Shown: positions 4,693 through 61,010 of the stretch, one piece after another
How positions within the stretch are numbered: the stretch's first letter is position 1
How the letters are laid out: each line of letters opens with the position of its first letter
Source: a virus
Lineage: Duplodnaviria > Heunggongvirae > Uroviricota > Caudoviricetes
Virus record (IMG/VR): IMGVR_UViG_3300014208_000001
Coordinates: 293,318 to 355,825 of that record
Reading direction: 5' to 3' (one strand)
Length of the DNA stretch: 62,508 nt
Position numbers and translations under genes: made by a program
Notes under the pieces: generated by a model
Databases searched by the model: none
What the model was told of the DNA's origin: nothing
What the model saw: the letters and a program-made list of their open reading frames with translations, nothing else

Positions 4693-6306
4693 ATGACACC
4701 AACAGAAGAAAACGACAACAAATTATATTCGCAAGATATGTATACGGGACCAACACAGTTCACGCATCTCCATAACCACTCGGTATGGTCACCTCTGGAC
4801 GGTGTTGGCACCCCGTTACAGTATGCCAAAGAATGTGAAAAACGCGGATATACCGCAATGAGTGCTACAGAACATGGAAATGTGGCCAGCATACCAGACA
4901 TGTATGTTCACTTTAAACAACGCAATTTAAAATTTATTGCCGGTTGTGAGATATACTACTGTGACCACGAACCATTACGCCAAAGCCAATATTTATCGCG
5001 ATCAGAATTAAAAAAATTAAAAATATCTAAAAACCAAGATGACATTAAATTATATTATAAATTAACCAGAAATAGACATCTTACAGTTTTAGCCAAAAAT
5101 ATGACTGGTTATCATAATCTTTTAAAATTAACAACTCAAGCATATGAAACTGGCTTATTTGGCATGGGTAGAACACAATATCCACGTATATGGTTTGACA
5201 AATTATGCGAATATAAAGAAGGACTAATCATATTATCTGGTTGTTTAAATGGTCCAGTATCACATGCTATACGTCATAAAGAAGGTAAAGATAAAAATGG
5301 CAATATCGAATATACAATAAGTGATAGAGAAAGATTGACAGATGCTATACAATATGTCAAAAAATTCAAAAAAGAATTTGGAGAAGATTATTTTATAGAA
5401 TTACAAATGCCAGGTATCGAAGATGACCATACGGTATTTAAAATGTTATTATCATTAGCCGATGAATATAATATTAAACCAGTATTAACGAATGATGTGC
5501 ATTATTTAACTAGAGAAGAGCATGAAATACAAAAAATAATGATGGCTATAGAGCAAGGAACAACAGTAAATGATCCTAACTTGTTCCATGTTAATAGCAG
5601 CGAACAATATATGAAAACACGTGGCGAATTATGGGCCACATTCAAAAATGGAAAATACTCACAAACAACTAACGACGCAATATTCGAACAGATGTGCGAC
5701 AATACATTATTAATTTCTGATAGATGTGAAAAATTGAATATCGACTCATCACCTAAAATACCACATATATCAAATGCTGACACAGAATTAAAAGATTTAG
5801 TACATAGAAAATTAAAAGAGCTTAAACTTGATATCAACACCGAAAAATTTAATATCGATGGCAAACTGGTAACATACAAAGAACAAGCCGACATTGAATT
5901 AAATAGAATAATTGAAAAAGGATTCTCTAGTTACTTTTTGATAACTAGGGAACTAATCAAATTTGGTAGAAGTAAAGGATGGCCTTTTGGCCCTAGAGGG
6001 TGCGTTACACCAGATTCATTGATTAATACCAGTAAGTCTGAGCAAAAGAAAATTATTGATATACAAATAGGAGATAAGGTTTTAGATGGTTTTGGTGATG
6101 AGCAAATCGTAGAAAATAAATTTATTTATGATGTGTCAGAAGAATTGTTTATTATCGAATTAGATGGGTGCGAATTAGAAGTCACAGCTGATCATAAATT
6201 TTATATCATTAGAAATGAGGTGGTTTTACTTTTACCTGTATATCAAATCAAAGATACCGATGAAATCATTGGTGATCTCTTGGATCAACGAGACATCCAT
6301 GTCTAA
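4693..6306 (+). CDS. dnaE: DNA polymerase III alpha, piece 1: PHP domain plus start of palm, ending in split intein N-half (IntN1)
   Basis: FTHLHNHSVWSPLDG, TEHGN, GCEIY, HLTVLAKNMTGYHNL, SGCLNG, TNDVHY, ELNRIIEKGFSSYFLI and GPRG|C motifs; ATG 4693 follows AAAGG. Confidence 0.95.
   Translation: MTPTEENDNKLYSQDMYTGPTQFTHLHNHSVWSPLDGVGTPLQYAKECEKRGYTAMSATEHGNVASIPDMYVHFKQRNLKFIAGCEIYYCDHEPLRQSQYLSRSELKKLKISKNQDDIKLYYKLTRNRHLTVLAKNMTGYHNLLKLTTQAYETGLFGMGRTQYPRIWFDKLCEYKEGLIILSGCLNGPVSHAIRHKEGKDKNGNIEYTISDRERLTDAIQYVKKFKKEFGEDYFIELQMPGIEDDHTVFKMLLSLADEYNIKPVLTNDVHYLTREEHEIQKIMMAIEQGTTVNDPNLFHVNSSEQYMKTRGELWATFKNGKYSQTTNDAIFEQMCDNTLLISDRCEKLNIDSSPKIPHISNADTELKDLVHRKLKELKLDINTEKFNIDGKLVTYKEQADIELNRIIEKGFSSYFLITRELIKFGRSKGWPFGPRGCVTPDSLINTSKSEQKKIIDIQIGDKVLDGFGDEQIVENKFIYDVSEELFIIELDGCELEVTADHKFYIIRNEVVLLLPVYQIKDTDEIIGDLLDQRDIHV
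6001..6303 (+). other. split intein N-fragment 1 (101 aa)
   Basis: starts with Cys (CVTPDSLI), IQIGDKV, block B LEVTADHKF; acidic; followed directly by a stop. Confidence 0.92.
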
Positions 6307-7300
6307 AATAATTAAAGTAATATACAATTGTGAAAAATGTGGTATTGAATGCACTACTACGAATCATAATTTAAGATATAGAAAGAATTATAAAAATGAA
6401 TATATATGTCAAAAATGTTTGATAAAATTAGAAAAGTCAATGGATGTATTTAAAGCTATTCCGGTTGAATTTCATTATCAAATATTTGCAAATTTAATCG
6501 AATATGAAATAGCTATACAATATTTATGCAATATATCAACAAATACATGTGTTAAATTCACATGCCAAAAATGTAATGGTATTAATATTATGCGCTGGCG
6601 TGATTTAGAACGTAGAAAATATCATAAATATGACAATATTTGCTCGAAATGTTTAAACAAATTAATACAAAATAATCCTGAAAAATTAGAAGCTAATAAA
6701 AATAATGCTAAGAAATTATGGTATAGTGAAGACTATAAATCACGTTGTTTAAGAGCATTTGAATCACATAATAAGAAAATGCAATTAGATCCAAAATATG
6801 CTAATAAGCATCGTAGAAAGTCTAAATCAGTTACTGGTAAGATTTTAATTGATAATCAACTAATTATATTTGATAGTGCATTTGAATTGATATTTTTATG
6901 GAGTATTAGAGGTAAATACAATATTATTAGAAGATGTGATTTTGCTATAGCATATAATAATCATTTTTATCATCCAGATTTTTTAGTTGTTGATAATGAT
7001 AATAATCGAATAATAATAGAAGTAAAAGGATTTTATAAAAATAATATTATTGCGAAACAAAAAGCTGCGGAACAATATATTATTGAAACTAATATCGCTG
7101 ATTCGTATATTTTATATGACACAGAACGTTTATTGTCTGAAAGTATTTTACATGGAATTGGTGGTGCTTACATGTGGAAACAAATCAAGGAGATAAATCA
7201 TGAAGCAATTATCAGCTTCACAGATCCGAAACATCAACGAATTGCAGAAATTGGTATCAACAGGTTCCGTAAAGAGATTAAAAATCAAGAGTATGTCTAG
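6299..7300 (+). CDS. free-standing putative homing endonuclease (Zn-ribbon repeats plus PD-(D/E)xK nuclease)
   Basis: CEKC, CQKC, CQKC and CSKC repeats; FDSAFE...YHPDFLV...IIIEVKG catalytic motif; lies between IntN1 and IntC1. Confidence 0.8.
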   Translation: MSKIIKVIYNCEKCGIECTTTNHNLRYRKNYKNEYICQKCLIKLEKSMDVFKAIPVEFHYQIFANLIEYEIAIQYLCNISTNTCVKFTCQKCNGINIMRWRDLERRKYHKYDNICSKCLNKLIQNNPEKLEANKNNAKKLWYSEDYKSRCLRAFESHNKKMQLDPKYANKHRRKSKSVTGKILIDNQLIIFDSAFELIFLWSIRGKYNIIRRCDFAIAYNNHFYHPDFLVVDNDNNRIIIEVKGFYKNNIIAKQKAAEQYIIETNIADSYILYDTERLLSESILHGIGGAYMWKQIKEINHEAIISFTDPKHQRIAEIGINRFRKEIKNQEYV

Positions 7301-7532
7301 ACGCCATTATACTGGTAAAGTATATGATTTGCAAGTTAGTGTTACTAATACATATAAATTAAATGGTGTTTTAAGTTCAAATTCTGCTGGCGGATCATTA
7401 GTATGCTTCTTAATAGAAATCACATCAGGCGTCGATCCCATGTTATGGGATTTATCGTTTGATAGATTTTTAAGTGCTAGTCGTGGCGGATATTTATTAA
7501 ACATCAAAATGCCAGACCCGGTGATACAATGA
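7200..7532 (+). CDS. dnaE: DNA polymerase III alpha, piece 2: IntC1 (7200-7382) plus 49-aa extein
   Basis: AAGGAG RBS; KIKSMSRRHYTGKVYDLQV...NGVLSSN|SAGGSLVCFLIEITSGVDPMLWDLSFDRFLS continues the DnaE GRGSAAGSLV..GIT.VDP...L.FERFL motif. Confidence 0.92.
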   Translation: MKQLSASQIRNINELQKLVSTGSVKRLKIKSMSRRHYTGKVYDLQVSVTNTYKLNGVLSSNSAGGSLVCFLIEITSGVDPMLWDLSFDRFLSASRGGYLLNIKMPDPVIQ

Positions 7533-7888
7533 TTACAATAACTATTGATATTGTTGTAGATGGTTCTAATTTTATAGGTACCGCAAAATGTGAATATATT
7601 GATCATTATGGTAAAAAATTAACATCTATTATGCCGCATGTTTTTAAAAATATCAATGAATCATATACTGAAGATTTATGCGAATTATGTTTATTAGTTA
7701 TGGTTTTACAAAATATAATACCAGGCCATAGAAAAAATATAACAATATTTGTTCATCATCAATTAATAATTAGTATTGTTAATAAAATTATAAAACCAAC
7801 TGGAATATATAAAAATTTTGGAAACAAGTTGCTTAAAATATTAACAAATTGCGATTCTTTTATAATAAAAAGATTAGAAAAGGTTTAA
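7529..7888 (+). CDS. hypothetical protein, possibly a degenerate RNase H-like fold
   Basis: IVVDGS...EL...LQ...ITIF..HQLII pattern. Confidence 0.4.
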   Translation: MITITIDIVVDGSNFIGTAKCEYIDHYGKKLTSIMPHVFKNINESYTEDLCELCLLVMVLQNIIPGHRKNITIFVHHQLIISIVNKIIKPTGIYKNFGNKLLKILTNCDSFIIKRLEKV

Positions 7889-7890
7889 TT

Positions 7891-8667
7891 ATGGAAATTG
7901 AGCGAGTTATTCAAGACATTATGAATGAATTTTCATTCAGAAAAGCAGTTGATAAAGTACGTATCAATGGGTATGATATTAATAATAATATTAATGCATT
8001 CTATAAAACAGAAGAAATACATATGTCATCATATACTCATATTAAATATGGTTTGGCCAGACTTTGTATACAACTTACGAACACACATCTAATTGTCGCA
8101 GCACCATCGTGGTTTTCAGAATTTAATATACAAAAATTTTCATTATTAGAAAATTTTGAAGATGAATTAAGATTTAGTGTTGAAAAATACGCTACTGACA
8201 TATCTCCAAAATATGATATTTATAAAAAATATCTTCAAATAGGCACACCATACAGTGAATATTTTAAGCGTTTTCATTACATAAAGGATATGCGAGATCG
8301 TCCACGCGCGTCTGTCATGTTTAATACCAGCATTCAAACACCTAATAAATATGTTGGTATGTATGCATTCGGCCCATTTAGTCATTTTGGGCGCGAAAAT
8401 TTAGTAATGGGTTTTGATGGTGAATATGTCATCGAAATGTATACAACGCAACGTGAACCCTGCGACTTCACGAGTGGTTCAACTGAGTATCATAATAAAA
8501 TGCATCTATTAAATACAAAAGCATTAAATTATTATGCATCAACTATGAATAAAACAAAAAGAGCATATTTACAATTACAGAAAGATAAAAGAAACGCACC
8601 GCCAATATCTAAAAATCCATGTGCGGAAATATTATTGAAAAGCAAAAAAGGTAAGAAAACGAAATAA
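7891..8667 (+). CDS. hypothetical protein
   Basis: long ORF; ATG 7891 follows AAGG. Confidence 0.6.
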   Translation: MEIERVIQDIMNEFSFRKAVDKVRINGYDINNNINAFYKTEEIHMSSYTHIKYGLARLCIQLTNTHLIVAAPSWFSEFNIQKFSLLENFEDELRFSVEKYATDISPKYDIYKKYLQIGTPYSEYFKRFHYIKDMRDRPRASVMFNTSIQTPNKYVGMYAFGPFSHFGRENLVMGFDGEYVIEMYTTQREPCDFTSGSTEYHNKMHLLNTKALNYYASTMNKTKRAYLQLQKDKRNAPPISKNPCAEILLKSKKGKKTK

Positions 8668-8669
8668 TT

Positions 8670-9104
8670 TTATAAATTCTTACGCATAGTAATTTCTTTA
8701 CATTTAAAACCGTGTTTCGCGTAAAAACCGGTATTATTTTCATTACATGATAATAATACTTTATAACATGATCTTAATGACGCTTCATTTAATAGAAATG
8801 ATACCATAGATTTACCTATACCAACATTTCTATAGCCTTTTTTGACTACAACATCCTCTATGTGTCCGATTGTGCTCAAACCATGTATTAATTTCTTCTC
8901 AAATAATATTGATGCTGTACCTATTACTATTATATCTATTACTAATATAACAATTTTATCTTGATTGATAATATGTTCGTACGCTTCGCGTAGTATTTTT
9001 TCATTTGGCGTAATGTTTGCTGGTGACAAATCGTTAAGCACAGTAAGATACTCATTCATTCGTTGAAAGGAGAGATGTTCAATATGCATAACTTTCCCTT
9101 TCAT
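8670..9104 (-). CDS. GNAT acetyltransferase, glucosamine-6-phosphate N-acetyltransferase (GNA1)-like
   Basis: EKKLIHG...GHIEDVVV...YRNVGIGK...CYKVLLSC....FYAKHGF. Confidence 0.85.
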   Translation of the reverse strand: MKGKVMHIEHLSFQRMNEYLTVLNDLSPANITPNEKILREAYEHIINQDKIVILVIDIIVIGTASILFEKKLIHGLSTIGHIEDVVVKKGYRNVGIGKSMVSFLLNEASLRSCYKVLLSCNENNTGFYAKHGFKCKEITMRKNL

Positions 9105-9133
9105 AGTTATATAATATTTGATATAACAATATT

Positions 9134-9820
9134 ATGAGTATATCATCACTTAATATTAATGACCATAGGCTAATAATTAGCGATCATGCTTGCTATAGAT
9201 GGCGCGAAAGGGGAAGTTGTTATATTAATATAACAGAAGCAGTACGTAAATCACAAATATTAACAGAAGAAGAAACGAAATTTATAACTGAATTACAAAT
9301 ATCATTAGATAGATATTACTCGATATTTGATAATAGATATGTATTCGTATTAGCATATGATAACGATATACTAACAGTAGTAACAGTAATCAAATTACAA
9401 TACGAATTAATACCAGGATCATTAAAAGCAGAACAACATATATCAAATAAAATAAATATATTAGAGTCATTAAATAATGAAACTTATATAGAATATATAC
9501 GTAAGCAAGCACTTATGTATAGCGCAACTGCAGCATTTTATAAATTATTAAAAACAAATCCATCATTATTAGATCATGCTACGTTTGATATACCACCAAG
9601 AATTCATTCAGTATTACTCGATGAATCATTACGTGATTTTAAACAATTTTGTCGTAGTTATTGTGTTCCAGCATTATTAGACCCAGTAGATGATTCATTT
9701 ATACTTATGCTGAATGATTTCGGCAAAATAAATTGTAAAATGTACGTAACCCATACAATAAAATATGTCACGCCAGAATTATTTTACTCATTAAAATCAG
9801 AAAACAAAATATTAACGTAA
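9134..9820 (+). CDS. hypothetical protein (N-terminal SDHAxxRWxER motif)
   Basis: 228-aa ORF. Confidence 0.55.
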   Translation: MSISSLNINDHRLIISDHACYRWRERGSCYINITEAVRKSQILTEEETKFITELQISLDRYYSIFDNRYVFVLAYDNDILTVVTVIKLQYELIPGSLKAEQHISNKINILESLNNETYIEYIRKQALMYSATAAFYKLLKTNPSLLDHATFDIPPRIHSVLLDESLRDFKQFCRSYCVPALLDPVDDSFILMLNDFGKINCKMYVTHTIKYVTPELFYSLKSENKILT

Positions 9821-9843
9821 TTCGCCATAACAAAGAAGCAACA

Positions 9844-10194
9844 ATGGAAATTGAAACACCAAAAGAAGAAAAAAAGCCCCCAGGGTTTGATTATCAAAAT
9901 ACGGCATTTTATTTAATGCGGCCACACTCAATGTCTGTGATAGAAGCGTATAAAATAAAAAACAAAGCAGAGCATGCTGCTTTAATTAAAAAAGCGGTCG
10001 ATTTGCAATTGTATGTGTGGTATTCTAAAGCCGATGAACCCAAAATTTATATTGTAGACTTTGATAGTATACCAGAAATAGCTTATACTAATTTGACCAA
10101 ACATGATATATCTAAATTAATATGCCCAAGATGCGGAAAGTCATTAAAAAGTAAATCAGGTTACACTTTACATATGAAGCAAATCCATGGTTAA
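9844..10194 (+). CDS. protein with C-terminal C2H2 zinc finger
   Basis: CPRCGKSLKSKSGYTLHMKQIH. Confidence 0.7.
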   Translation: MEIETPKEEKKPPGFDYQNTAFYLMRPHSMSVIEAYKIKNKAEHAALIKKAVDLQLYVWYSKADEPKIYIVDFDSIPEIAYTNLTKHDISKLICPRCGKSLKSKSGYTLHMKQIHG

Positions 10195-10399
10195 GAAACA
10201 ATACGAAATCCGCAAAATATATAGGCCAAATCTCCTATGGGAGTATCAAGCTTTTAGAGTTGTAAACGATGAAGCTAAAGGCGTACCACCGCAATTAAAA
10301 ACAGAGTATGTTGAACGTATTATGGCTGAGGGGCCAAAAGACGCCGTCGATAAATATTATTTTGAACACATGAATTCTGACATGGATTTATGGGCATGA
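10187..10399 (+). CDS. hypothetical protein
   Basis: 70-aa ORF overlapping both neighbours. Confidence 0.55.
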   Translation: MVKKQYEIRKIYRPNLLWEYQAFRVVNDEAKGVPPQLKTEYVERIMAEGPKDAVDKYYFEHMNSDMDLWA

Positions 10400-12033
10400 T
10401 GAATTGGACAGAACTTCAACGAGAATCATTTAAATTATTGATTCAAAAAAAGTTAGGGCCAAAATATCAAAAACGATTAATATTTGAATTTAAAGAAATA
10501 GAAAAACAAGGAGCCAACGCATATTGGCTCAATATTATAAATAACAAATTAAAATTCACTGATAATCCTAATAAATTATTACTGCCATGGCTGCATTCGG
10601 CGGTCATAGATGATAGTGATCCTTTAGACGATCATACAATCACAACAGCAAATTTCAATATTATTAAAAAATATCAAGATGAGCATGGGGCATTACCAAT
10701 CGGTATTATAAAAGATACTGATATGCCAGATATCGATATTGATTGCTTACCAATGGCTAGAGAACATATTAAAAAATTCGCAATGGCAAAATATAACATT
10801 ATATCGAATGATAATTATGGAGCAGTGTGTAGTGTGGGAGCGTGGCAAACATTTAAATTCAAAGCGGCATTACGAGATGTTGCATCAGCAACCGGATTAT
10901 GCAGCAAAAGTGAAATATTCGAATTAACAAAATTATTACCTGATGAAGTAGATGAAATAAAAGAAGGAGGATTATCAACATGTAAAGGAAAAATAATAGA
11001 TATAAATACAAATATCACAAAAGATTGCAAAACATCACATAGATTAATCGAATGTCCAAATTGCGCGAGTAAAGAAACAGAATCACCGACTATAGGTCAA
11101 GTTTTAAATGACCATAAATATCTAACAGAATTCTACACAAAATATCCAACCATAGTAGAATCTGCTATCAATTTAATAGGACGAGTGCAACACATTGGTA
11201 TGCATGCTGGAGCGATTATAATCGCTGATAGGTCATTATTTGGTAATATTCCGATGTCAAAAAGCAAAAGTAAAGGTTCAGAATATTGGGTTAGTATGTG
11301 GTCAGAAGGCAGAAATACTCAATTATCAAAATTTGGCTTCACAAAATGGGATATTTTAGGATTAAAAACACTCGAGTATATTTATGAATGTTGCAAATTA
11401 TTAAGGTCAACTAAGAACATATATTTTGGCGAAAAAACAACAGATCCAGAATATGTGCCAATGGATGGTTGGGATCATGTTAATCCAAAATTTGTAGGAG
11501 AAATCGAAGGTACTAAAGTTAAAGGTATGGCTGGGTATTATTATATTAATGACGAGAAGAAGTGGATTAGCCTAAATGATGATAATGTTTTAAGGACAGC
11601 TAGAGAATTAAAAACGGATACTGTATTCCAATTTGATACAGAATTGGCAAAATCAATATTAAAAACAGGTACACCAAAATCATTTGATGACTTAATGTTA
11701 CTAAGTGCAATGGGCCACCCTGGTCCGATGGACTGCTGTGCGCCATACGCAAAAGTGTTAACAGATGACGGATACGTGGAAATTAAAGATATTGACGGAT
11801 CTCAAAATATAGCGTATATCAATGACCAAAATGAAATATCATACACAACTCAATATCTAATTGGAGAATCTGGCGAGAAAGAAATATTTGAAATCGAAAC
11901 CGAAGATGGAAATATTGTTCCAGTATCAAAAGACCATTTGATACTGACTCCAAAAGGATTTATCAAAGTTCAAGATCTAAAAGAAAACGATGATATTATG
12001 AATTTAACGCCACAAACACCAAAAGAAACATAA
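10390..12033 (+). CDS. dnaE: DNA polymerase III alpha, piece 3: catalytic palm/thumb ending in IntN2
   Basis: MPDIDIDC, KAALRDVA, GMHAGAIII, KWDILGLKTL, VFQFD and HPGPMD|C motifs. Confidence 0.95.
   Translation: MGMMNWTELQRESFKLLIQKKLGPKYQKRLIFEFKEIEKQGANAYWLNIINNKLKFTDNPNKLLLPWLHSAVIDDSDPLDDHTITTANFNIIKKYQDEHGALPIGIIKDTDMPDIDIDCLPMAREHIKKFAMAKYNIISNDNYGAVCSVGAWQTFKFKAALRDVASATGLCSKSEIFELTKLLPDEVDEIKEGGLSTCKGKIIDINTNITKDCKTSHRLIECPNCASKETESPTIGQVLNDHKYLTEFYTKYPTIVESAINLIGRVQHIGMHAGAIIIADRSLFGNIPMSKSKSKGSEYWVSMWSEGRNTQLSKFGFTKWDILGLKTLEYIYECCKLLRSTKNIYFGEKTTDPEYVPMDGWDHVNPKFVGEIEGTKVKGMAGYYYINDEKKWISLNDDNVLRTARELKTDTVFQFDTELAKSILKTGTPKSFDDLMLLSAMGHPGPMDCCAPYAKVLTDDGYVEIKDIDGSQNIAYINDQNEISYTTQYLIGESGEKEIFEIETEDGNIVPVSKDHLILTPKGFIKVQDLKENDDIMNLTPQTPKET
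11734..12030 (+). other. split intein N-fragment 2 (99 aa)
   Basis: CCAPYAKVLTDDGYVEIKDI...IFEIETEDG...VSKDHLILTPKGFIKVQDLKEND; followed by a stop. Confidence 0.92.
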
Positions 12034-12037
12034 AATT

Positions 12038-12598
12038 ATGAGCAATCCTACACAAGAATTGATAAAATTATCAGCACAACATGGGACATCGTTTTTGACA
12101 GATACTATATTAACAAACCCTAAATTCGCAATATGGAGCGGTTCATCTAAGCCGTTCCAACATCATTATGGTAAAGGTGGACTAGCCCAACATACATTAG
12201 AAGTCACACAATTATGTTTACAATCTAATATAACACTTGGTAACCCAGTACCAATTCAACATATTTTGCTAGCCGCGATTTTTCATGATTGTGGCAAAAT
12301 GTGGGATTATGAACCGCTTGATGATTCTTTTGAAGAGTGGCAAGGTACTATTCATAAAAGAAGAATTCATCATATTTCTAGATCAGCTATAATATGGACG
12401 GAAACAATCAATAATTTTAAAAATGCATTTGCATTCCAATATAAAGATGAAATCTTACACGCTATTTTATCACATCATGGGTTACGCGAATGGGGTAGCC
12501 CAGTATCGCCTAACACCAAATTAGCGTGGCTATTACATTTGTGTGATGGTATTAGTGCAAGAATTAATGATTGTGACAAGCAATCAGATATTACGTAA
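12038..12598 (+). CDS. HD-domain phosphohydrolase (YhaM-like HD domain)
   Basis: HH..GGLAQHTLEV, FHDCGK, HAILSHHG..EWGSP and LHLCD motifs. Confidence 0.88.
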   Translation: MSNPTQELIKLSAQHGTSFLTDTILTNPKFAIWSGSSKPFQHHYGKGGLAQHTLEVTQLCLQSNITLGNPVPIQHILLAAIFHDCGKMWDYEPLDDSFEEWQGTIHKRRIHHISRSAIIWTETINNFKNAFAFQYKDEILHAILSHHGLREWGSPVSPNTKLAWLLHLCDGISARINDCDKQSDIT

Positions 12599-13926: not shown

Positions 13927-14440
13927 AATAACAATACTAATAATCGATTCATTTAAAACATATATAGGATTATACCATAAATTATACCATGATGAATATG
14001 ATATATATCTACATAAAGGTGGCATAATAGAAATCGTGTTGAATCACAATCGTGGAACAGGGTCATTAACATCAAGTTGTGTATCTGTTTTAATTAATTT
14101 GACTAATAATATTATGATACGATATCATAACGCATATAATAGCGCATTTTGTGGTGTTTTACATAATGAAAATGTTGACTATGATGAGTTTGATCCTTCA
14201 ACTATTTTAGATAAACTCGTGATGCTTCATGTTTATAACACATTACAATTACATACAAGATATGCGACGTATATACAAGATACTAATACTATATATATCA
14301 AAAGTTTGCGAATAACATTACTATGTGACTTATTCACTTTATATGATTCTAAAAATGAAACAACTACTGAAATACATAGGGGTATACACAACGAGTCTAA
14401 AATGATTGAATTTGTACTAAGGAGTAATCATGAAGATTAA
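13901..14440 (+). CDS. hypothetical protein
   Basis: 179-aa ORF. Confidence 0.55.
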   Translation: MIDSQLSSEITILIIDSFKTYIGLYHKLYHDEYDIYLHKGGIIEIVLNHNRGTGSLTSSCVSVLINLTNNIMIRYHNAYNSAFCGVLHNENVDYDEFDPSTILDKLVMLHVYNTLQLHTRYATYIQDTNTIYIKSLRITLLCDLFTLYDSKNETTTEIHRGIHNESKMIEFVLRSNHED

Positions 14441-16055
14441 ATCGATCACGAGCAAAGGGGTAATGAAAACATATGATATATTAAATAACGCACCGAATAA
14501 ATTATTAAATCAAGGTAATTTTATAATTGATAATATAATAGTACATAATTCGATACCAGATGTCATCAAAAATCGTGATGATAAAACTGATAAATGGAAA
14601 GCAGAATTAAAACATTTATCTAATGATATATATAACATATTACAAACCACATATGGTAAAATTGTGTTTCAAGAGCAATTGGCAAATATTTGGCAAATAG
14701 TTGGTGGGTTTACCGCTACAGAAGCCCAAGAAGCACGAAAATCAGTAGCCAAAAAATGGGTAGAAAAACTTAAACCCATCAAACAAAAATGGATAACTGG
14801 TGCAACAACAACATTAGGATATGATGAAGCTATAAAGTGGTGGGATGATATGGAGTCTTTCGGACGATATGCTTTTAATAAGTCACACTCTGTTGCATAT
14901 AGTTTAGTTGCATATAGATGTTTATATTTGAAAACATATTATCCAGCCGAATGGTGGGCGACAGTTATGACTAGATGCCATCGGCAAAAATTAACGAGAT
15001 TTATGGAAGTGGCCAGATCAGAAAATGTTAGATTTGGTATTTTCGACCCAAATCATCTTACTGGCGATTTTACAGTTCTTAAAGACAATGATGGAAGCGA
15101 TTATATAAGTCCAGGATTGTTAGGTGTTAAAGGAGTGAAATCAAAGGCTACCGTGTACGAAGGTAAAGGTGATTTCACAAATATAGATGATTTTATAAAT
15201 GCTAAAGGTGCCCATAAAGTAACAATGGAAAGATTAATAAAATTAGGTACTTTTTCACGCATGGAAGGTCATAGCAATATAAAAGCAACATGGATGTGGT
15301 ATTTGTATGCGTACACTAAAGACACAAAAGTGCGTAGTGAAATAAAGGCACAACTATTAGAGGTTCAAGGATGGGATCAAAATACCATACGTGAAGAAAT
15401 AGAACGTCAAGCTAAAGAATATAGAATTTTATATCCAAAGCGAAATAAAATACCAACCAAAATATTGAATTGGAAACCTAAACCAAATGATGATAGAGAA
15501 AGTGTTATGAAATTGGTCGTAAATGATTACACATTATCTGAATTACTTGCATTCGAAAAAGATTATTTGGGGTATTATTTAAGATCGCCATTAGATATGT
15601 ATAAATTATCTGGTTTAACAATATCATCAGCTAAGAAGTATTTTAAAAATAACGCCGGTGCTGAATCATATAAAACAATAGCCAGAATTGAATGTGTCGT
15701 GCAAAATGCATACATAGGTCAAACTAAAGACAAAAAATCGACATTTGCCAGATTGGCTATCACTGATGGCAAATTAACAGCTAGTGTATTTTGCTGGGAA
15801 AAAGAATTAGATGATATAGTGGCGCAATGGTATCATAAAGAAAATTCAATTGATTTATTGTTTGTTGTTGGTAAATTAATGTCAGAAGGTAAAGAAGAAG
15901 AAGCAACACAATTTTATTCAGATGTATATGATTCATATTTAAAATATATAACAAGTAAAGGAGTAAAAATTAGCGTGGTATATAATGAGCAGAGATCAAC
16001 ATACAGTATTGCCAAAAGAACGCCAATCACATTTTTAGAATTGAGAGCCACATGA
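14430..16055 (+). CDS. dnaE: DNA polymerase III alpha, piece 4: IntC2 (14430-14549) plus fingers/HhH/OB-fold extein
   Basis: AAGGAG RBS; MKIKSITSKG..KTYDI...NFIIDNIIVHN|SIPD; TYGKIVFQEQ, RYAFNKSHSVAY, YLKTYYPAEWW and EKDYLGYY motifs. Confidence 0.95.
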   Translation: MKIKSITSKGVMKTYDILNNAPNKLLNQGNFIIDNIIVHNSIPDVIKNRDDKTDKWKAELKHLSNDIYNILQTTYGKIVFQEQLANIWQIVGGFTATEAQEARKSVAKKWVEKLKPIKQKWITGATTTLGYDEAIKWWDDMESFGRYAFNKSHSVAYSLVAYRCLYLKTYYPAEWWATVMTRCHRQKLTRFMEVARSENVRFGIFDPNHLTGDFTVLKDNDGSDYISPGLLGVKGVKSKATVYEGKGDFTNIDDFINAKGAHKVTMERLIKLGTFSRMEGHSNIKATWMWYLYAYTKDTKVRSEIKAQLLEVQGWDQNTIREEIERQAKEYRILYPKRNKIPTKILNWKPKPNDDRESVMKLVVNDYTLSELLAFEKDYLGYYLRSPLDMYKLSGLTISSAKKYFKNNAGAESYKTIARIECVVQNAYIGQTKDKKSTFARLAITDGKLTASVFCWEKELDDIVAQWYHKENSIDLLFVVGKLMSEGKEEEATQFYSDVYDSYLKYITSKGVKISVVYNEQRSTYSIAKRTPITFLELRAT

Positions 16056-55800: not shown

Positions 55801-56438
55801 ATCAACAATAACCAACTCAAACTGAGAAAGCGACGTATGATACTTAACAGCCATCAAATACCCCACAAATATTAACAAACCAAAACAACAAAACAATATC
55901 ACAAAAACACCACAAAAAGTAAAACACCAAATAACCATGGAAACAGACCTAGACACCATAATAATAGAAACATTCACACAACACCACAACATATCACACA
56001 CATACAAACCAGACACAACCACCATAATACTAGAATCACTATCACCTCACGGACTAATAGTAACACGCATAACCACCACCAACACACTACACCTCAAAAC
56101 ACAACAATACCTATACAAACAATTAGCACAACCACAAGAAACAACCATCCAACTAACAGACCCACACATACTAACCAAACTAGACACATATGCAAGAAAT
56201 AGCTACCATAATAATCAATAGCATAACAAACAACATAGGAAAAATAACATCAACATATACACTACACAACTACTACATACTAACAATCAAAAACATAATA
56301 ATAGAAATATTCATATTTGACATACCACTAATAAAAATATACCACATATCACCAAGAGGAATAAGAGCACTACTATCAGAAATACACTACAACCCACTAC
56401 ACGACAACCCACAAATACTAGGCACACAATAACAAACA

Positions 56439-56708
56439 TCACACAATAACATCTTCACACAACTTATTAACAACCACCTCATACAACTCAATAACAATCG
56501 AACCACCCTCACTAAAAATATCACCACTCATACAACGCATCAAAAGATCAACATTATACCTATAAGAATTCAAATCAATAGCCTTAAAAATATCATCAGT
56601 AGTATTATAACTACTATACCCCTGCGAATATTCATGATCAGACACATACCCATCATTCTTGCTATCGATAACCTTCATAACCTTGATAACTTTAGTAACA
56701 ACGTTCAC
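56439..56708 (-). CDS. hypothetical protein
   Basis: GTG start after GAGGG. Confidence 0.5.
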   Translation of the reverse strand: MNVVTKVIKVMKVIDSKNDGYVSDHEYSQGYSSYNTTDDIFKAIDLNSYRYNVDLLMRCMSGDIFSEGGSIVIELYEVVVNKLCEDVIV

Positions 56709-56733
56709 ATTAAAAGCCCTCTAAAACTCCGGA

Positions 56734-56999
56734 AAATATTTCGCGCAGAAAAACACACTCCGGGGACCCAAAAAATTAATTTCTAATCTGCGACATAACA
56801 GCAGCATAAGCATGAATAGATGCCCAATCTGGTTCAGCTTCATCTGAGTGATGCCTACGCCAACCCTCCTGCCGACAAGTTTCAGAACAATAAAACTTAT
56901 TAAGATTCTCAACAGGCACACGCTTATTACAAATACTACAAAAACCAGTTGCAAACGGCATCAAAAGCCCCCTAGGAGTTAAAGAAATATATCGCGCAG
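56734..56999. repeat. direct repeat AAATAT(T/A)TCGCGCAG (56734-56748, 56985-56999), each with a nearby AAAAGCCC element
   Basis: visible twice, upstream of the last two minus-strand AT-rich genes. Confidence 0.6.
56776..56961 (-). CDS. small Zn-finger protein
   Basis: CSIC...FYCSETCR; AGGGG RBS. Confidence 0.6.
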   Translation of the reverse strand: MPFATGFCSICNKRVPVENLNKFYCSETCRQEGWRRHHSDEAEPDWASIHAYAAVMSQIRN

Positions 57000-57011
57000 G
57001 AGAGAAACCCG

Positions 57012-57036
57012 ACCCCTATTGGGGTATATTTACCCC
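57012..57036. repeat. interlocked inverted repeats ACCCC-TATT-GGGGT / GGGGTA-TATT-TACCCC at the AT/GC junction
   Basis: direct reading of 57011-57047. Confidence 0.6.
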
Positions 57037-57051
57037 TTCCCCCTCCCATAC

Positions 57052-57216
57052 TTAGTATGTTGCAGGGAATATCTGTGCCAGTAAATCGTACGCGAGTGCT
57101 CCCCCGACAATTGGGACAGCGAGTAATTCGATGGTGAGGATTGTCAGTTTATTGTTGCTTCCCTTGGCTGCTGCGTAAAGGATGGCGAGCCATGCTGCTG
57201 CTGGAATTGTGACCAT
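57052..57216 (-). CDS. small membrane protein (54 aa)
   Basis: AAGGAG RBS; MVTIPAAAWLAILY...; two hydrophobic segments. Confidence 0.65.
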   Translation of the reverse strand: MVTIPAAAWLAILYAAAKGSNNKLTILTIELLAVPIVGGALAYDLLAQIFPATY

Positions 57217-57422
57217 CGTGGTCTCCTTGTGCACGTCGTGTGCTGGGAATTGTTGCAGGGCACAGGGGGCTCCGAAAAGTGGGAGCCCCCTTGCCGAGAC
57301 ACCCGACGCTGGTTCGGGTTCACCACCTCCGACGCTGGCTCGGAAGAACACCATTCGCTCAGGGGGTTGTTGCAGGGGGCGGGGATCCAGTAAAAGTGGG
57401 ATCCCCGCCACCCCGCAGGCGG

Positions 57423-57587
57423 TCACTCGTCGTCTTCGTCGACGTCGATGTCCATCTCTGCGTCGTCGTTGTCTTCGTCGTCGGGGTCGAGGTCGTGGTG
57501 GTCCTCCTGTTCGGAGCGGTTCACTTGACGTGTCGCGAGATCGTCTGCGATTGCAGCGTCGATCTCACTCCTGCGGAGCATCATCAT
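57423..57587 (-). CDS. small highly acidic protein (54 aa; not in the ORF track)
   Basis: GGAGGAG RBS; MMMLRRSEIDAAIADDLATRQVNRSEQEDHHDLDPDDEDNDDAEMDIDVDEDDE. Confidence 0.7.
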   Translation of the reverse strand: MMMLRRSEIDAAIADDLATRQVNRSEQEDHHDLDPDDEDNDDAEMDIDVDEDDE

Positions 57588-57624
57588 GGCTCACTCTCCT
57601 CCGGGCGGAATTGCCCGATGCCGG

Positions 57625-57653
57625 ATTATTGCGGCAGGGGGGAGTGTCGTCAA
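57625..57653 (-). promoter_or_regulatory. sigma70-like promoter TTGACG-N17-AATAAT
   Basis: near-consensus, upstream of 57587; back-to-back with the + strand copy at 57689-57718. Confidence 0.7.
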
Positions 57654-57870
57654 GTGGCGGTGGTGGTGGCGGGTGGCGAGCAGCCCACTTAACGAGGAGT
57701 GGGGGGTGCCGCAACAGGGGGGAGTCAGGGACGCGAACGACGAAACGACGCGACTGACGACCACCGCGACACCCGGAATTGCCGGGACCACCCGGTGGTG
57801 CAAGAATCTGGTGTGGTGGGGGCGTGGTGCTCCCGCCCTGCAACGCAACTCTCGAATGGGGTCTCGAATC

Positions 57871-58218
57871 ATGGCCACGCAGAACACGAAGAAGGAAGCG
57901 GCACGCGTCAGCGAAGGTCTCGTCAAACTCGTGCAGGACACCAGCCCGGTCGCCAAGTGCCTGGACACGGACAGCGTGCGGGGGCTGCTCCTGATGGCTC
58001 TGCAGACCGTCTCGGTGAAGCGGTCGATCCTGCAGGCGGTGGGTGTCACGGACATCTCCGAGGACAAGCTGAACGAGCCGCTGACGCTGCCCGCGAAGAA
58101 GGCGACCCGCCGTCGCAAGCAGAACGTCGCCGCGAACGCCGCTGCGAACGCCGCCGCTGCTGCCGAACCCGGCAACGACGACGAGGAAGAGGAAGACGAC
58201 GACAACGACGGCGAATGA
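57871..58218 (+). CDS. hypothetical protein with basic patch, Ala-rich linker and acidic tail
   Basis: ATG 57871; GC-rich third codon positions; ends EPGNDDEEEEDDDNDGE. Confidence 0.7.
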   Translation: MATQNTKKEAARVSEGLVKLVQDTSPVAKCLDTDSVRGLLLMALQTVSVKRSILQAVGVTDISEDKLNEPLTLPAKKATRRRKQNVAANAAANAAAAAEPGNDDEEEEDDDNDGE

Positions 58219-58275
58219 TCGCCTGCGGGACCTCCACCCGCTTTTTCTCTGCTGGGGCGGGGAGACAACTCCCCG

Positions 58276-58330
58276 CCCATTTTCTCTCACTCCCACTCAC
58301 TGCAACAGAGAGGGGTTGAGAGAAAATGGG
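58276..58330 (+). repeat. long hairpin CCCATTTTCTCTCA...TGAGAGAAAATGGG enclosing one motif copy
   Basis: perfect 14-bp inverted repeat. Confidence 0.7.
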
Positions 58331-58354
58331 CTCTTTCCAGAAAGGAAATCACGT

Positions 58355-58636
58355 ATGTTGATCCACTACATGGACCATAACGACGGTGAAATGATTGTCA
58401 AAGTCGAGGAAGACACCTATCGCGAGACGCTGACCAACCTCGACGGTAGAGAACTCGCGGAATGGTTTTCCAAAGCCAAAGAAATCATCAACCACGATCC
58501 GAAGATCTCGGAGTTTGACGCCTGCGAAGCTTTTTTCTCGTTCACCGATGTCGCGAATGGCTACACCACCGCGAAATCGCTCCTAGCAGAGCTTGACGAC
58601 GAGGGGCGAGGAAGACGAATAACCAGCCAGTTGTGA
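58355..58636 (+). CDS. hypothetical acidic protein
   Basis: AAGGA RBS; ATG 58355. Confidence 0.65.
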   Translation: MLIHYMDHNDGEMIVKVEEDTYRETLTNLDGRELAEWFSKAKEIINHDPKISEFDACEAFFSFTDVANGYTTAKSLLAELDDEGRGRRITSQL

Positions 58637-58671
58637 GTGGTGAACTTGAGACCCCGTGACTTGGAGGGACA

Positions 58672-58749
58672 GTGAAAACTCGCACACTCATGTGGTTTGC
58701 GTTGGTGTGTTCGCTTTTGAATTCGCTTGCGATCATTCTGCGACCGTGA
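58672..58749 (+). CDS. 25-aa hydrophobic peptide
   Basis: GGAGGG RBS; MKTRTLMWFALVCSLLNSLAIILRP. Confidence 0.5.
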   Translation: MKTRTLMWFALVCSLLNSLAIILRP

Positions 58750-58816
58750 ATTGTACGGACCTCCCCCTTCTTGAAAGAGGAGGGGGAGTTTTGCCAGCCC
58801 ACTTTCCAGCGAGGAA

Positions 58817-59032
58817 ATGCCCGTGCCTGAACAGAAACTGTACAAGAACAAGTGTGATTCGCTGCAGTATTGTCCTGTCGTGAACGGCGAGGACAGGCCG
58901 ATCGGTGACAGCGTGTCTGAGCAGGATTTGGCTGATCGTGGCTTTGTGCCGGTCAAGGCGTGGCGTTTGGGAGAATTGGTGGTGTTTGAGAGCGAGAACG
59001 GGAATTCGGTCCTCGATTGCTCTCAGAACTGA
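58817..59032 (+). CDS. hypothetical protein
   Basis: follows motif and GAGGA RBS (start may be GTG 58823). Confidence 0.6.
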   Translation: MPVPEQKLYKNKCDSLQYCPVVNGEDRPIGDSVSEQDLADRGFVPVKAWRLGELVVFESENGNSVLDCSQN

Positions 59033-59121
59033 TCACTGACCCGCCACGTGAGGGTTTACGGGACTCCCCATTCTTGAAATAGGAGGGGGGGTCCCGTTCC
59101 ATTTCCAGCGAGGAAATACGA

Positions 59122-59463
59122 ATGTTGAAAGATGATTTTGCTCAGCAAGCACTAGCATATGCACAATCGATTTCGGCGGTGAAACCAGCTCACCGTAACG
59201 GTGGAGAGGTGTCTAATTCACCGTTAATTGTGCTGCAGGATTTGTATCTCGCGTATTGCAACAGCGAGATTCTCGAACCGGGCAATTACTCCGCGAACGA
59301 ACTCCGCGAATTGATCTGTGAATATCACGCTAATGGTACGAAGGGCGTGTACATTATGGATCAAGATGAGATCATCGACGAACTGTGGCGAGCATACGTC
59401 GACAGTCTGGATGATGACGACGATTGTACTCCAGCCGAATTCCTCAGTACACTCTGCGAATAA
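59122..59463 (+). CDS. hypothetical acidic protein
   Basis: follows motif and RBS. Confidence 0.65.
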   Translation: MLKDDFAQQALAYAQSISAVKPAHRNGGEVSNSPLIVLQDLYLAYCNSEILEPGNYSANELRELICEYHANGTKGVYIMDQDEIIDELWRAYVDSLDDDDDCTPAEFLSTLCE

Positions 59464-59539
59464 GCCACCGGGGTTTACCGGATCCCCCTTCTTGAAAGAG
59501 GAGGGGGTAGAGGCCCCACTTTCCAGCGAGGAAAAATCC

Positions 59540-59914
59540 GTGAGCAAACAAAAGCAAATGGCTTTGAAAAAGATGCTGGATACTGCGGCGGCGTGTCAAG
59601 AATGGCGTGCCAACAACCGTGGTGTCATCCCATTGGAGAGCCAACATCTCTTTGACGAAAATCGCAAAGCTCGCATTGAGTACGGGCGATTGTGCACCAA
59701 AGAAGAAGCCAAAATCTGCAAAGTCGCAAAGGTGACAGATCTCGCCACCAATGAGGAATTCGTTGATTTGCGAGTTCCACTCGATGTGTTCAAACGCATC
59801 AGGGAGGCTATCGAAGCCGGTTTTTCTGACGAAGAACAGTTTGCACTGGCCGCAGACGGTAAATTGTATGCCAGAACGCTTTCTGTGTTGTTTGACCTCA
59901 GGAAGATCGATTGA
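59540..59914 (+). CDS. hypothetical protein
   Basis: GTG 59540 after GAGGA. Confidence 0.65.
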   Translation: MSKQKQMALKKMLDTAAACQEWRANNRGVIPLESQHLFDENRKARIEYGRLCTKEEAKICKVAKVTDLATNEEFVDLRVPLDVFKRIREAIEAGFSDEEQFALAADGKLYARTLSVLFDLRKID

Positions 59915-59999
59915 ACATACAGATGGATTGGTTTACCGGATCCCCCCCCTTCTTGAAATAGGATGGGGAGAACCACCCTTTCCAGTGAGGAAAATATGA

Positions 60000-60221
60000 A
60001 TGTTCGAATGTTTTAGTCTTACAGATTTCACATGGGTTGAATTGCTGGAATTCATGCTGATTCCGCATTACAGCAACCAACATAGGGATGATACGCCGCC
60101 AAAATCGTTCGAAATCAAAACCATCAAGTGTGGCGATGAAAACGAACAATTCTTGGTGGTATGGGATGGGCAACGGCCAACAGATCAACAAATTATCAAC
60201 CAATTCATCATGAGGAAATAA
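60000..60221 (+). CDS. hypothetical protein
   Basis: follows motif and RBS. Confidence 0.6.
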   Translation: MFECFSLTDFTWVELLEFMLIPHYSNQHRDDTPPKSFEIKTIKCGDENEQFLVVWDGQRPTDQQIINQFIMRK

Positions 60222-60484
60222 TGCAACTCAACCACGCCCAACTCATCCGGCAAGCTTCCGAAACCATCGACTCCGAAATCGAAATCTACGCCGACTATTC
60301 TGGTCGCGGAATGATGGGGAATTCGACCGCCGGAGTCACTGGCGATAAGAGTTCAATCATCGCTGCGATGGTTTACGCGGCATTTGAAATTGGTCGCAGT
60401 GGTGGTGATGTCGACGAATTCATGGTTGATATCCATCGACTGCGATGGGACAACATGGGACGATCTGATGTGATCGCTTACTAG
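60221..60484 (+). CDS. hypothetical phage protein (YSGRGM motif)
   Basis: GAGGA RBS; TAATG coupling. Confidence 0.65.
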   Translation: MQLNHAQLIRQASETIDSEIEIYADYSGRGMMGNSTAGVTGDKSSIIAAMVYAAFEIGRSGGDVDEFMVDIHRLRWDNMGRSDVIAY

Positions 60485-60496
60485 GAAGGGTGATGA

Positions 60497-60685
60497 ATGA
60501 CACCACACGATAAGGCTCGCGAAGAGCGTGCTCTGAATTGTGATACGGATAATTTGGAAGCCCTCGAAGATGCCATTCGAGGGCTTCAAAGCACAGATGA
60601 CCCATCTTTGGTTGGGTTACATGATGAGTTAATGGAGAAATACGAGAAATTGAAACGTCAGCGTGATACTCCGACTGATGTTTAG
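60497..60685 (+). CDS. hypothetical protein
   Basis: 62 aa; convergent with the minus-strand block. Confidence 0.55.
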   Translation: MTPHDKAREERALNCDTDNLEALEDAIRGLQSTDDPSLVGLHDELMEKYEKLKRQRDTPTDV

Positions 60686-60690
60686 CTCGC

Positions 60691-60939: not shown

Positions 60940-61010
60940 TGTCTACTTCTCCCGGCGGGACCATCCCCACACCCCCCTCTTGCAGGGGGAGGGGGATCGG
61001 TAAAATCCCG

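Follow-up and report, generated by a model that had tools for sequence, protein, structure and literature searches.

An intein-free break in a phage DnaE polymerase as the probable boundary between the genes of two subunits

We analysed a window of 62,508 nucleotides (positions 293,318 to 355,825 of IMG/VR record IMGVR_UViG_3300014208_000001) from a 356-kb uncultured phage (355.8-kb record). DnaE is encoded here in four pieces separated by three breaks. Split intein 1 joins pieces 1 and 2 into a PHP and palm polypeptide (subunit A), and split intein 2 joins pieces 3 and 4 into a catalytic polypeptide (subunit B). The third break lies between the subunit A stop and the subunit B start (7532/10396). 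The features of the two subunits are as follows.

4693..6000, + strand: subunit A N-extein (piece 1), PHP and first part of the palm, ending GPRG; Pfam PHP, PF07733 positions 4-68
6001..6306, + strand: split intein 1, N half, beginning with Cys, inside the GPRG/S motif; weak Hint match
6215..7300, + strand: endonuclease-like free-standing ORF between the intein 1 halves; weak DUF790, TnsA-like N and DUF1064 matches
7200..7382, + strand: split intein 1, C half, ending ...SSN followed by Ser +1; Intein_splicing profile positions 115-155
7383..7532, + strand: subunit A C-extein (piece 2), SAGGSL...FDRFLSASRGGYLLNIKMPDPVIQ then stop; PF07733 positions 52-99
10396..10719, + strand: subunit B N-domain (start of piece 3), about 108 aa, classed as a palm paralogue without a GS loop by hhalign, BLASTP and model
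10720..11733, + strand: subunit B core part 1 (rest of piece 3), DxD strand, third Asp, thumb, Cys/His cluster and first part of the fingers; PF07733 positions 99-260, finger positions 24-89
11734..12033, + strand: split intein 2, N half; Intein_splicing, 7.6e-5
14430..14549, + strand: split intein 2, C half, ending ...IVHN followed by Ser +1
14550..16055, + strand: subunit B C-extein (piece 4), remainder of the fingers, HhH and C-terminal region; PF17657 positions 94-163, HHH_6

We observed a strong PHP match in piece 1 (5.3e-32, Pfam), and the PHP metal-ligand motifs (HLHNH, LDG, EHG, CEI, RHL, GCL and DVH) were present in the translation as invariant columns among homologues. Subunit A also carries the nucleotide-binding half of the Pol-beta-like palm, with the GS loop (GPRG|S) and the FDRFLS.SR arginines. 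After splicing, subunit A is ~470 aa long and 55-71% identical to homologues of ~470 aa. More than 100 of these share the C-terminus ...SRGGYMLN.xMP followed by 1-6 variable residues. Subunit A ends 5 residues past the conserved MP, and the end of the 7383..7532 segment is its true C-terminus. The break at the intein 1 site was also found in four other genomes (L019, L023, L031 and L033). The families weakly matched by the ORF between the intein halves (DUF790, TnsA-like N and DUF1064) are of the PD-(D/E)xK type.

At the third break, the DNA_pol3_alpha profile (PF07733) reaches position 99 at the end of piece 2 and starts from position 99 in piece 3, which places the break exactly before the catalytic PDIDID. 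In piece 3 this match begins at residue 110, after about 108 extra residues. The initial annotation had proposed that piece 2 stops where DnaE enters the catalytic strand, that piece 3 carries ~110 extra residues and that the break is intein-free, and our profile searches bore out all three. The cut falls between the GS (nucleotide-binding) loop and the DxD strand. The TGA of subunit A (stop 7530-7532) shares an ATGA with the start codon of the next ORF, and a new start follows at 10396, so that PHP, palm and fingers are not on one polypeptide. Piece 3 probably starts at 10396 rather than 10390: the ATG at 10396 and the stop of the preceding ORF share an ATGA, and the protein has 545 aa in its database copy.

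The other two DnaE breaks of this genome are joined by split inteins, and the N-domain ORF of some distant relatives ends with a HINT-like stretch. Both observations favour a scenario in which an intron, trans-splicing or a cryptic intein-like domain joins the parts after transcription or translation into a single-chain DnaE. However, on neither side of the third break did Pfam report a signal for Hint or an intein, although it detected both other inteins, and an Rfam search of 7300-10800 found no intron with matches admitted up to E<=1. The 1-6 variable residues are all that follows the conserved MP in subunit A. The N-terminus of subunit B is a helical palm homologue and not a Hint fold, and a joined product would contain the palm segment twice. 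One genome has the two genes on opposite strands with ~56 kb between them. These data make such joining highly improbable.

Six ORFs occupy the gap between the two subunit genes.

7529..7888, + strand: gap ORF 1, 119 aa, ATG overlapping the subunit A stop; no Pfam or PHROG match
7849..8667, + strand: gap ORF 2, 272 aa; no Pfam or PHROG match
8670..9104, - strand: gap ORF 3, GNAT acetyltransferase; Pfam Acetyltransf_1, 2.8e-11
9134..9820, + strand: gap ORF 4, 228 aa; no Pfam or PHROG match
9844..10194, + strand: gap ORF 5, 116 aa, small-ORF family Z; BLASTP clustering with nine loci
10187..10399, + strand: gap ORF 6, 70 aa, stop overlapping the ATG at 10396

Only the GNAT ORF gave a clear family match, and four of the six had no match in Pfam or PHROG. 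Gap ORF 1 weakly matched a conserved gap family, Y (E 0.02). Nine relatives have a family Z member close upstream of their catalytic gene, and the C-terminus of gap ORF 5 carries a C2H2-like motif (weak zf-C2H2 match). Six intervening genes had been described as unrelated; the count is right, but the membership of ORF 9844-10194 in family Z means that not all are unrelated. Mobile elements heavily invade the locus, and together with the six gap ORFs, one on the opposite strand, this could point to a recent disruption specific to this contig, to pseudogenisation or to an assembly artefact. Comparative data refute this. Both ORFs flanking the break are intact and conserved, and the same termini and N-domain recur in hundreds of independent metagenomic proteins and at 42 IMG/VR loci, which leaves a local accident with next to no probability.

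These metagenomic homologues fall into two classes, PHP and palm-N proteins of ~470 aa and catalytic proteins of ~900 aa with the N-domain. More than 100 subunit B homologues start with the N-domain. At most of the 42 IMG/VR loci with enough upstream sequence, the subunit A gene lies upstream of the subunit B gene on the same strand, 0.9-2.7 kb away; the gap reaches 10 kb in one genome, and another is the genome with the opposite-strand arrangement. Among homologues longer than 826 aa we found no fused A and B form, all in-family matches (40/40) being intein-bearing A subunits. Past these matches E jumps from 1e-98 to 1e-56, where canonical DnaE starts (30-34% identity). The fission had initially been assigned to this genome, a view that does not hold: each subunit has over 100 homologues with the same termini, and no fused form was found above 826 aa. 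By these comparisons, the split and the extra N-domain are conserved across the family and are not an event of this genome. No family B polymerase (PF00136) was matched in the 355.8-kb record, and a single, weak PolA-like ORF was present. Overall, we consider it probable that this C-family (DnaE) polymerase of huge phages is an old enzyme with two subunits throughout its family, and that the break at 7532/10396 separates the two subunit genes.

To place the N-domain, we compared its profile from 33 genomes with a full-length canonical DnaE profile (hhalign; probability 94%, E 9.2e-8, 73 columns). The aligned columns sit just upstream of PDIDVD, and the GPGRGS loop falls in a gap. An independent hhalign run with 106 and 68 sequences gave P=8e-9. 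Pairwise BLAST of piece 3 residues 1-110 against the pre-catalytic DnaE segment within the window detected nothing (E=19); the homology is significant at profile level. On this profile evidence, the subunit B N-domain and the pre-catalytic palm segment of DnaE are true paralogues. An 11-residue deletion has removed exactly the GPGRGS loop from the N-domain (a 12-residue gap when homologue P0012 is aligned by BLASTP with a single-chain phage DnaE). The N-domain has NPN where the loop would be, and in short-linker members the entire DP-to-PD stretch is deleted. It retains the Y..RL..E...I..G..Y helix motif of the canonical segment, and R27, E31, Q38, G39, L61 and P76 are invariant across the 33 genomes. 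The model of the domain is helical (pLDDT 91-98), and the domain occurs in 187 clusters (50% identity), nearly always at the protein N-terminus. The initial annotation called this region an eroded copy of the pre-catalytic segment; it is a duplicated copy, but its conservation and confident fold do not fit erosion. The N-domain matched its partner's own palm segment more weakly (E 2e-3) than canonical DnaE (E 9e-8), and this has no obvious fit with a simple duplication within the family.

The remainder of subunit B holds the catalytic core. The catalytic aspartates D114 and D116 (DxD) and D321 (KWDILGL) are invariant among homologues. The finger profile PF17657 breaks off after position 89 in piece 3 and resumes at position 94 in piece 4. 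The spliced protein (~900 aa) is collinear with intein-free homologues of ~900 aa. In a monomer model (pTM 0.63), the stretch from residue 108 to 448 can be superposed on residues 398-643 of E. coli alpha and 459-702 of Taq (Z 6-12). The model of subunit A homologue P0121 fits onto residues 1-396 of E. coli alpha and 5-455 of Taq (Z 33-35), with a high overall rmsd (~10 A) that leaves its inter-domain geometry uncertain. Subunit A plus subunit B from residue 108 thus tile canonical DnaE, with residues 1-107 of subunit B extra.

The distribution of motifs between the chains agrees with the proposed encoding of a PHP subunit that keeps a GRGS-type loop (GPRG/S, with intein 1 inside) and a catalytic subunit that has the aspartates. 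In the subunit A alignment, R434 and G435 are invariant and S436, R463 and R469 are conserved at 90% or more; even homologues of ~45% identity keep these GS-loop and arginine residues with little or no variation. None of the subunit B members examined has the GS motif or either arginine of the FERFLNPER-type motif. With the GS loop and two motif arginines only on subunit A and the three aspartates only on subunit B, a composite active site completed in trans is the most likely mechanism and the most economical reading of the sequences. Subunits A and B would most likely associate non-covalently, the palm segment of subunit A and its disordered, conserved C-terminal tail docking on the catalytic sheet of subunit B to assemble one active site from both chains. 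The last ~22 residues of subunit A are conserved, yet had pLDDT <50 in the monomer model of P0121 (71% identical), which fits folding on a partner.

Alternatively, subunit B could be self-sufficient. Its N-domain would complete the palm in cis, the NPN motif or finger residues would bind the triphosphate, and subunit A would be an epsilon-like PHP exonuclease with its palm remnant as a docking handle. The N-domain is, after all, a palm homologue with high conservation and a confident fold, it directly precedes the catalytic strand on the same chain, and, with the canonical helix motif retained, it could fill the canonical palm position. The PHP ligand motifs in subunit A suit an exonuclease, and make a proofreading role plausible in any case. 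The GS loop in subunit A could also be kept for structural reasons only. Inteins typically sit in functionally constrained motifs, and the persistence of the subunit A loop and arginines, with an intein in the motif, argues against self-sufficiency. So do the absence of both elements from subunit B and the complete loss of the DP-PD stretch in short-linker members. Rigid superposition of the subunit B monomer model, with its pTM of 0.63, on 14 DnaE/PolC structures starts at residues 108-115, and the N-domain is thus not modelled in the canonical slot. We regard a self-sufficient subunit B as possible, though unlikely. In the preferred two-chain site, the N-domain is most likely a structural or docking module and not a nucleotide-binding element.

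The closest published precedent, compared by the description in that paper, is the "minimal" Pol III alpha of group 2.2 (T4-like) jumbo phages, which is split into NTP-binding and Mg2+-/template-binding proteins (Iyer et al. 2021, Viruses 13:63, PMC7824862). These are encoded by separate genes without an intein and were proposed to reconstitute one enzyme (PMC7824862). In both systems, the palm is cut between its NTP- and Mg2+-binding halves into two genes. The group 2.2 version is a catalytic core alone, without PHP or the remaining Pol III alpha domains, and accompanies a family B polymerase, whereas the polymerase of our phage is full-sized, with PHP, palm, thumb, fingers and HhH, in a genome where no family B polymerase was found. 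The extra GS-less palm copy on the catalytic subunit has no counterpart in that description (PMC7824862). Canonical single-chain DnaE (E. coli 2HNH, Taq 2HPI/3E0D, M. tuberculosis 5LEW/7PU7) has the same domains in the same order, and single-chain DnaE is also known from phages (e.g., Gordonia phage RedWattleHog gp79). Our enzyme shares with the canonical one the three catalytic Asp residues, the GS loop and the PHP ligand motifs (30-34% identity to cellular DnaE); it differs in being two polypeptides, in the duplicated palm segment of ~85 residues and in the Cys/His cluster inserted in subunit B.

In fractured genes, split inteins flank a free-standing homing endonuclease (Dassa et al. 2009, NAR 37:2560, PMC2677866). 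Phage or marine DnaE genes are in pieces in such systems as well, and the split DnaE inteins of cyanobacteria are a similar case. Break 1 has this arrangement, and break 2 has it too except for the endonuclease. The third break differs from fractured genes in having no intein halves, and its products cannot be ligated by protein splicing. No recognisable endonuclease lies there; a novel one may be among the four gap ORFs without a match. The family B polymerase gp43 is split in some T4 relatives. In the T4-like phage Aeh1, an HNH endonuclease gene divides NrdA (cited in PMC2677866). By analogy, these cases resemble ours in that an essential replication enzyme is made as two proteins that would reassemble non-covalently. 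Those splits are recent, lineage-restricted and due to the insertion of an endonuclease gene, whereas the DnaE split here appears ancient and family-wide, with a duplicated segment at the junction.

The two-gene state probably goes back to a partial duplication that overlapped the palm segment, after which fission took place in an ancestor of the family. This order of events is plausible; no intermediate form was found. The GS-less N-domain may, as a rather doubtful idea, be an intramolecular stand-in that stabilises or silences the core until the PHP subunit brings the real GS loop. If so, polymerisation would be licensed only with the proofreading subunit in place, and synthesis and editing would be obligately coupled through the split active site.

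The window, whose GC content is ~30% except for a ~50% GC tail, makes up the final 62.5 kb of an IMG/VR virus record that is 355.8 kb long and carries direct terminal repeats. We identified four DnaE-encoding ORFs in it.

Extein segments of the four DnaE ORFs (window coordinates; Pfam matches as model positions)
4693-6000: piece 1, PHP domain and PF07733 positions 4-68; ends in GPRG, then the N half of a Cys-initiated intein
7383-7532: piece 2, PF07733 positions 52-99; the intein C half before it ends SSN|S
10396-11733: piece 3, PF07733 positions 99-260, finger positions 24-89; an intein N half comes next
14550-16055: piece 4, finger positions 94-163 and HhH; the intein C half before it ends VHN|S

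Because intein N and C halves flank the exteins of pieces 1/2 and 3/4, these two breaks are split-intein junctions. At the first, an endonuclease-like ORF stands free between the intein halves, an arrangement known from Dassa et al. 2009 (PMC2677866) as a "fractured gene". A third break, between pieces 2 and 3, had been described in the initial annotation as intein-free, and Pfam bore this out: both other inteins were detected, with no Hint/intein signal on either side of this break. Piece 2 ends, and the match in piece 3 begins (residue 110), at the identical PF07733 position, 99, and six ORFs, one a minus-strand GNAT, fill the 2.86-kb gap, which confirms the observed break in DnaE. Rfam found no intron in this gap, even at E ≤ 1. 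Piece 2 ends ...FDRFLSASRGGYLLNIKMPDPVIQ, followed by a TGA that overlaps the ATG of the next ORF. Reading this TGA as a sense codon was rejected because a TAA follows two codons downstream. The start of piece 3 is most likely 10396, where an ATG overlaps the stop of ORF 10187-10399; the piece 3 protein in the database is 545 aa long. A promoter/terminator scan was uninformative, with promoter-like matches at chance level in this AT-rich DNA. Over the last ~6.5 kb of the window (56000-62508), GC jumps from ~30% to ~50%, long ORFs are few and overlapping ORFs many, Rfam gave no match and only three short tandem repeats were present. This region may be terminal-repeat DNA, non-coding DNA or an assembly join.

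We then compared the two gene products, subunit A (PHP and nucleotide-binding palm half, pieces 1+2) and subunit B (catalytic chain, pieces 3+4), with their relatives. Among the hundreds of metagenomic proteins found with piece 3, many are ~900 aa long, have PF07733, finger and HhH present and PHP absent, and can be aligned from piece 3 residue 1. Piece 1 returned hundreds of ~470-aa proteins with PHP and partial PF07733, and the A homologues inspected share one end point (...SFDRFLSPSRGGYMLN.xMP plus 1-6 variable residues). Judged from contigs of matching length, A-type and B-type homologues occur on common contigs. Gene neighbourhoods were taken from IMG/VR loci found with an alignment query (a single-protein query found none). 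Most of the 42 loci that extend far enough upstream had the PHP gene preceding the catalytic gene on the same strand, across a gap of 0.9-2.7 kb in which two or three conserved small ORFs usually lay (families X, Y and Z). The two genes were ~10 kb apart in one genome and ~56 kb apart, on opposite strands, in another. A search for longer A relatives yielded 40 in-family proteins (830-1324 aa), all intein-bearing PHP subunits; finger/HhH domains were present in none of them, and no fused A+B form was found. In that search, E-values fell from 1e-98 to 1e-56 at the onset of canonical cellular DnaE (~1150 aa, 30-34% identity). Piece 3 had no tblastn match among GenBank phages at 1e-5; full-length P0012, an intein-free B homologue, matched 1277 GenBank phage records, all below 60% identity (25 matches listed at 23-28%). 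These phages thus hold distant DnaE only, and a cultured member of the two-gene family is therefore not on record there. Judged from these sequence comparisons, the split of DnaE into two genes is family-wide and old. The window is one more instance of this family-level arrangement, broken further by two split inteins.

Families X (~150 aa), Y (~150 aa) and Z (~120-250 aa) are regular occupants of the gap between the PHP and catalytic genes in the relatives' loci L004-L045 (for example, L013:8504-10025). They had no match in Pfam or PHROGs and are candidate accessory replisome proteins. Window ORF 9844-10194 is a member of family Z; the window also retains perhaps a weak Y (7529-7888, E 0.02), and X is missing.

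Subunit B opens with an N-domain of ~107 residues, which the initial annotation took for eroded copies of the DnaE segment that precedes the catalytic strand. Pairwise BLAST of the piece 3 N-terminus against the piece 1 tail within the window found nothing (E = 19), and the homology was visible at the profile level only. An N-domain profile (106 sequences) matched a profile of the canonical pre-catalytic segment (68 sequences) over 72 columns (probability 95.8%, P 8.2e-9). Likewise, N-domain alignment A4 (33 genomes) matched full-length canonical DnaE alignment A5 at columns 301-387, directly upstream of PDIDVD (probability 94.4%, E 9.2e-8). Both comparisons placed Y..RL.FE..EI.KQGA..YW opposite Y..RLeyEL.vI..mGF..YFL and LPWLLG...DP opposite SLVAYaLgIT.iDP, with an 11-residue gap in the N-domain removing PVGPGRGSAAG. 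A single BLASTP HSP between P0012 and Gordonia phage RedWattleHog gp79, a single-chain DnaE of 1064 aa, paired B residue 20 with gp79 residue 327 onward and had a 12-residue gap at GPGRGSAGG. The match of the N-domain to its own partner's profile was weaker (E 0.002-0.0075), in the correct register and the best among 20 control windows. An hmmsearch of PDB sequences with the catalytic-subunit profile gave a match that began at the DxD strand and did not reach the N-domain. On this profile evidence, the extra segment is a real palm paralogue.

The homology to the palm segment therefore stood, and the proposed erosion did not. R27, E31, Q38, G39, L61 and P76 of the N-domain are invariant across 33 genomes, Y24, L28, N57, P64 and D75 are nearly so, and the domain is modelled at pLDDT 91-98; it is not decaying. 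Its profile matched 187 clusters among 1.84 billion representatives (E ≤ 1e-3), and the domain lies at the very N-terminus save for two or three exceptions, one a false hit, among the 150 matches listed. Database protein P0482, returned by this search, was rejected as a low-complexity false hit. In at least about 30 of the matches listed, the N-domain stands alone as a protein of ~100-140 aa. In some distant relatives (L041, L042 and L044), a separate ORF of 128-141 aa encodes the N-domain; it ends in a HINT-like stretch (...LDNG..I.VP...) and lies 0.2-1.0 kb from the remainder of the gene. A 307-aa endonuclease-like ORF occupies the L041 gap on the minus strand (8925-9848).

Separate N-domain ORFs and gene remainders
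L041:8574-8999, N-domain ORF; 10007-12094, gene remainder
L044:9944-10330, N-domain ORF; 10533-12542, gene remainder

A further database protein, P0471 (1028 aa), is a distant PHP-less DnaE whose N-terminal segment Pfam sees as PF07733 from position 3. It also lacks GRGS (FENENGLLVEWLL) and may branch off at the margin of the catalytic-subunit family.

The ~85-residue segment is kept twice, once by the chain on each side of the cut. The proposed order of duplication followed by fission is plausible; no surviving intermediate form was found in the databases searched. The simplest origin lies in an ancestor of the family, either by partial duplication across this segment or by duplication of the whole gene and complementary truncation of the copies. 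Because the N-domain scored better against canonical DnaE than against its partner, an origin from two lineages is also possible. The initial interpretation is partly supported.

Structure models agreed with this division. The piece 3 extein model (448 aa, pLDDT 88.5, pTM 0.63) superposed from residues 108-115 on E. coli alpha 398-643, Taq 459-702 and M. tuberculosis 420-671 (Z 6-12). The model of P0121, an A homologue 71% identical to pieces 1+2, superposed on E. coli alpha 1-396 and Taq 5-455 (pLDDT 88.6, pTM 0.82; Z 33-35). A and B from residue 108 therefore add up to a canonical DnaE, gapless and without overlap, to which B residues 1-107 are additional. Rigid structural alignment (VIA) never superposed these residues together with the core. 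How the domains are arranged relative to each other is uncertain in the monomer models, with a pTM of 0.63 for B and an overall rmsd of ~10 Å for A. Likenesses of the N-domain to CNG/HCN channel C-linkers were generic helical matches (Z < 5) and were disregarded. B also carries a family-specific Cys/His cluster in its palm/thumb region (window 10981-11065, piece 3 residues ~198-225), with invariant C198, C213, H217, C222 and C225 (CKG...C..H....CP.C), in a region that is gapped in the alignment to single-chain DnaE. This cluster may be a zinc-binding module.

The nucleotide-binding elements lie on A only: the GS loop (R434 and G435 invariant, S436 ≥ 90%) and the arginine pair of the FDRFLS.SR motif. 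B alone carries the metal-binding aspartates, D114, D116 and D321. The main rival explanation is that the N-domain, itself related to the palm, completes the palm in cis, with A acting as an exonuclease subunit only. The N-domain has NPN in place of the GS loop, and its short-linker members lack the entire DP-to-PD stretch. Intein 1 (window 6001-7382) interrupts the nucleotide-binding motif of A at GPRG|S. Four other genomes (L019, L023, L031 and L033) are broken at the same residue (425/426 of database protein P0141); the intein site is therefore recurrent and allelic. Inteins typically insert into functionally constrained motifs, and their presence here marks GPRG|S as one. The last ~22 residues of P0121 are conserved, yet have pLDDT < 50; a predicted disordered tail of this kind suggests folding on a partner. 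From the divided motifs, the N-domain without a GS loop, the intein site and the A tail, we favour a non-covalent A-B heterodimer with a composite active site; the initial annotation had suggested that the site may be completed in trans. A would supply the GS loop and arginines, and B would supply D114, D116 and D321 to a single active site. The PHP domain is probably the proofreader, since its ligand motifs are present, and the B N-domain probably serves in docking or as a scaffold.

The replicases of bacteria are C-family polymerases and, to our knowledge, all C-family polymerases studied are single chains. We found no paper on a two-gene, full-size DnaE. T4-like jumbo phages with PolB encode a minimal phage-specific Pol III alpha as NTP-binding and Mg2+/template-binding proteins, and the PHP-containing Pol III alpha of group 3.2 phages are single, host-like proteins (Iyer et al. 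2021, PMC7824862). Marine jumbo phages carry PF07733, with no split mentioned (Weinheimer and Aylward 2022). The cut in the minimal Pol III alpha is analogous to the A/B break, whereas the window enzyme is full size, carries the duplicated segment and is apparently the main polymerase of its genome rather than a companion of PolB. No family B polymerase was found in this genome. The sole other polymerase-like signal came from a 393-aa open frame outside the window (G000:C1:254902-255267, minus strand), which matched part of DNA_pol_A weakly (model positions 246-377; 21 bits, rising to 36 when its neighbours are included).

Annotation pipelines will label the A and B genes as fragments or pseudogenes of "DNA polymerase III alpha", and knowing the two-subunit layout avoids misannotation for hundreds of huge-phage genomes. 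In this large natural family the palm is cut so that the triphosphate-binding loop lies on one side and the metal-binding aspartates on the other. The family would offer a natural system for telling apart what PHP and the nucleotide-binding and catalytic halves each contribute. The family may record gene fission via overlapping duplication, with the overlap kept under selection. If the composite active site is true, the Pol-beta-like nucleotidyltransferase fold of a replicase can form from two proteins.
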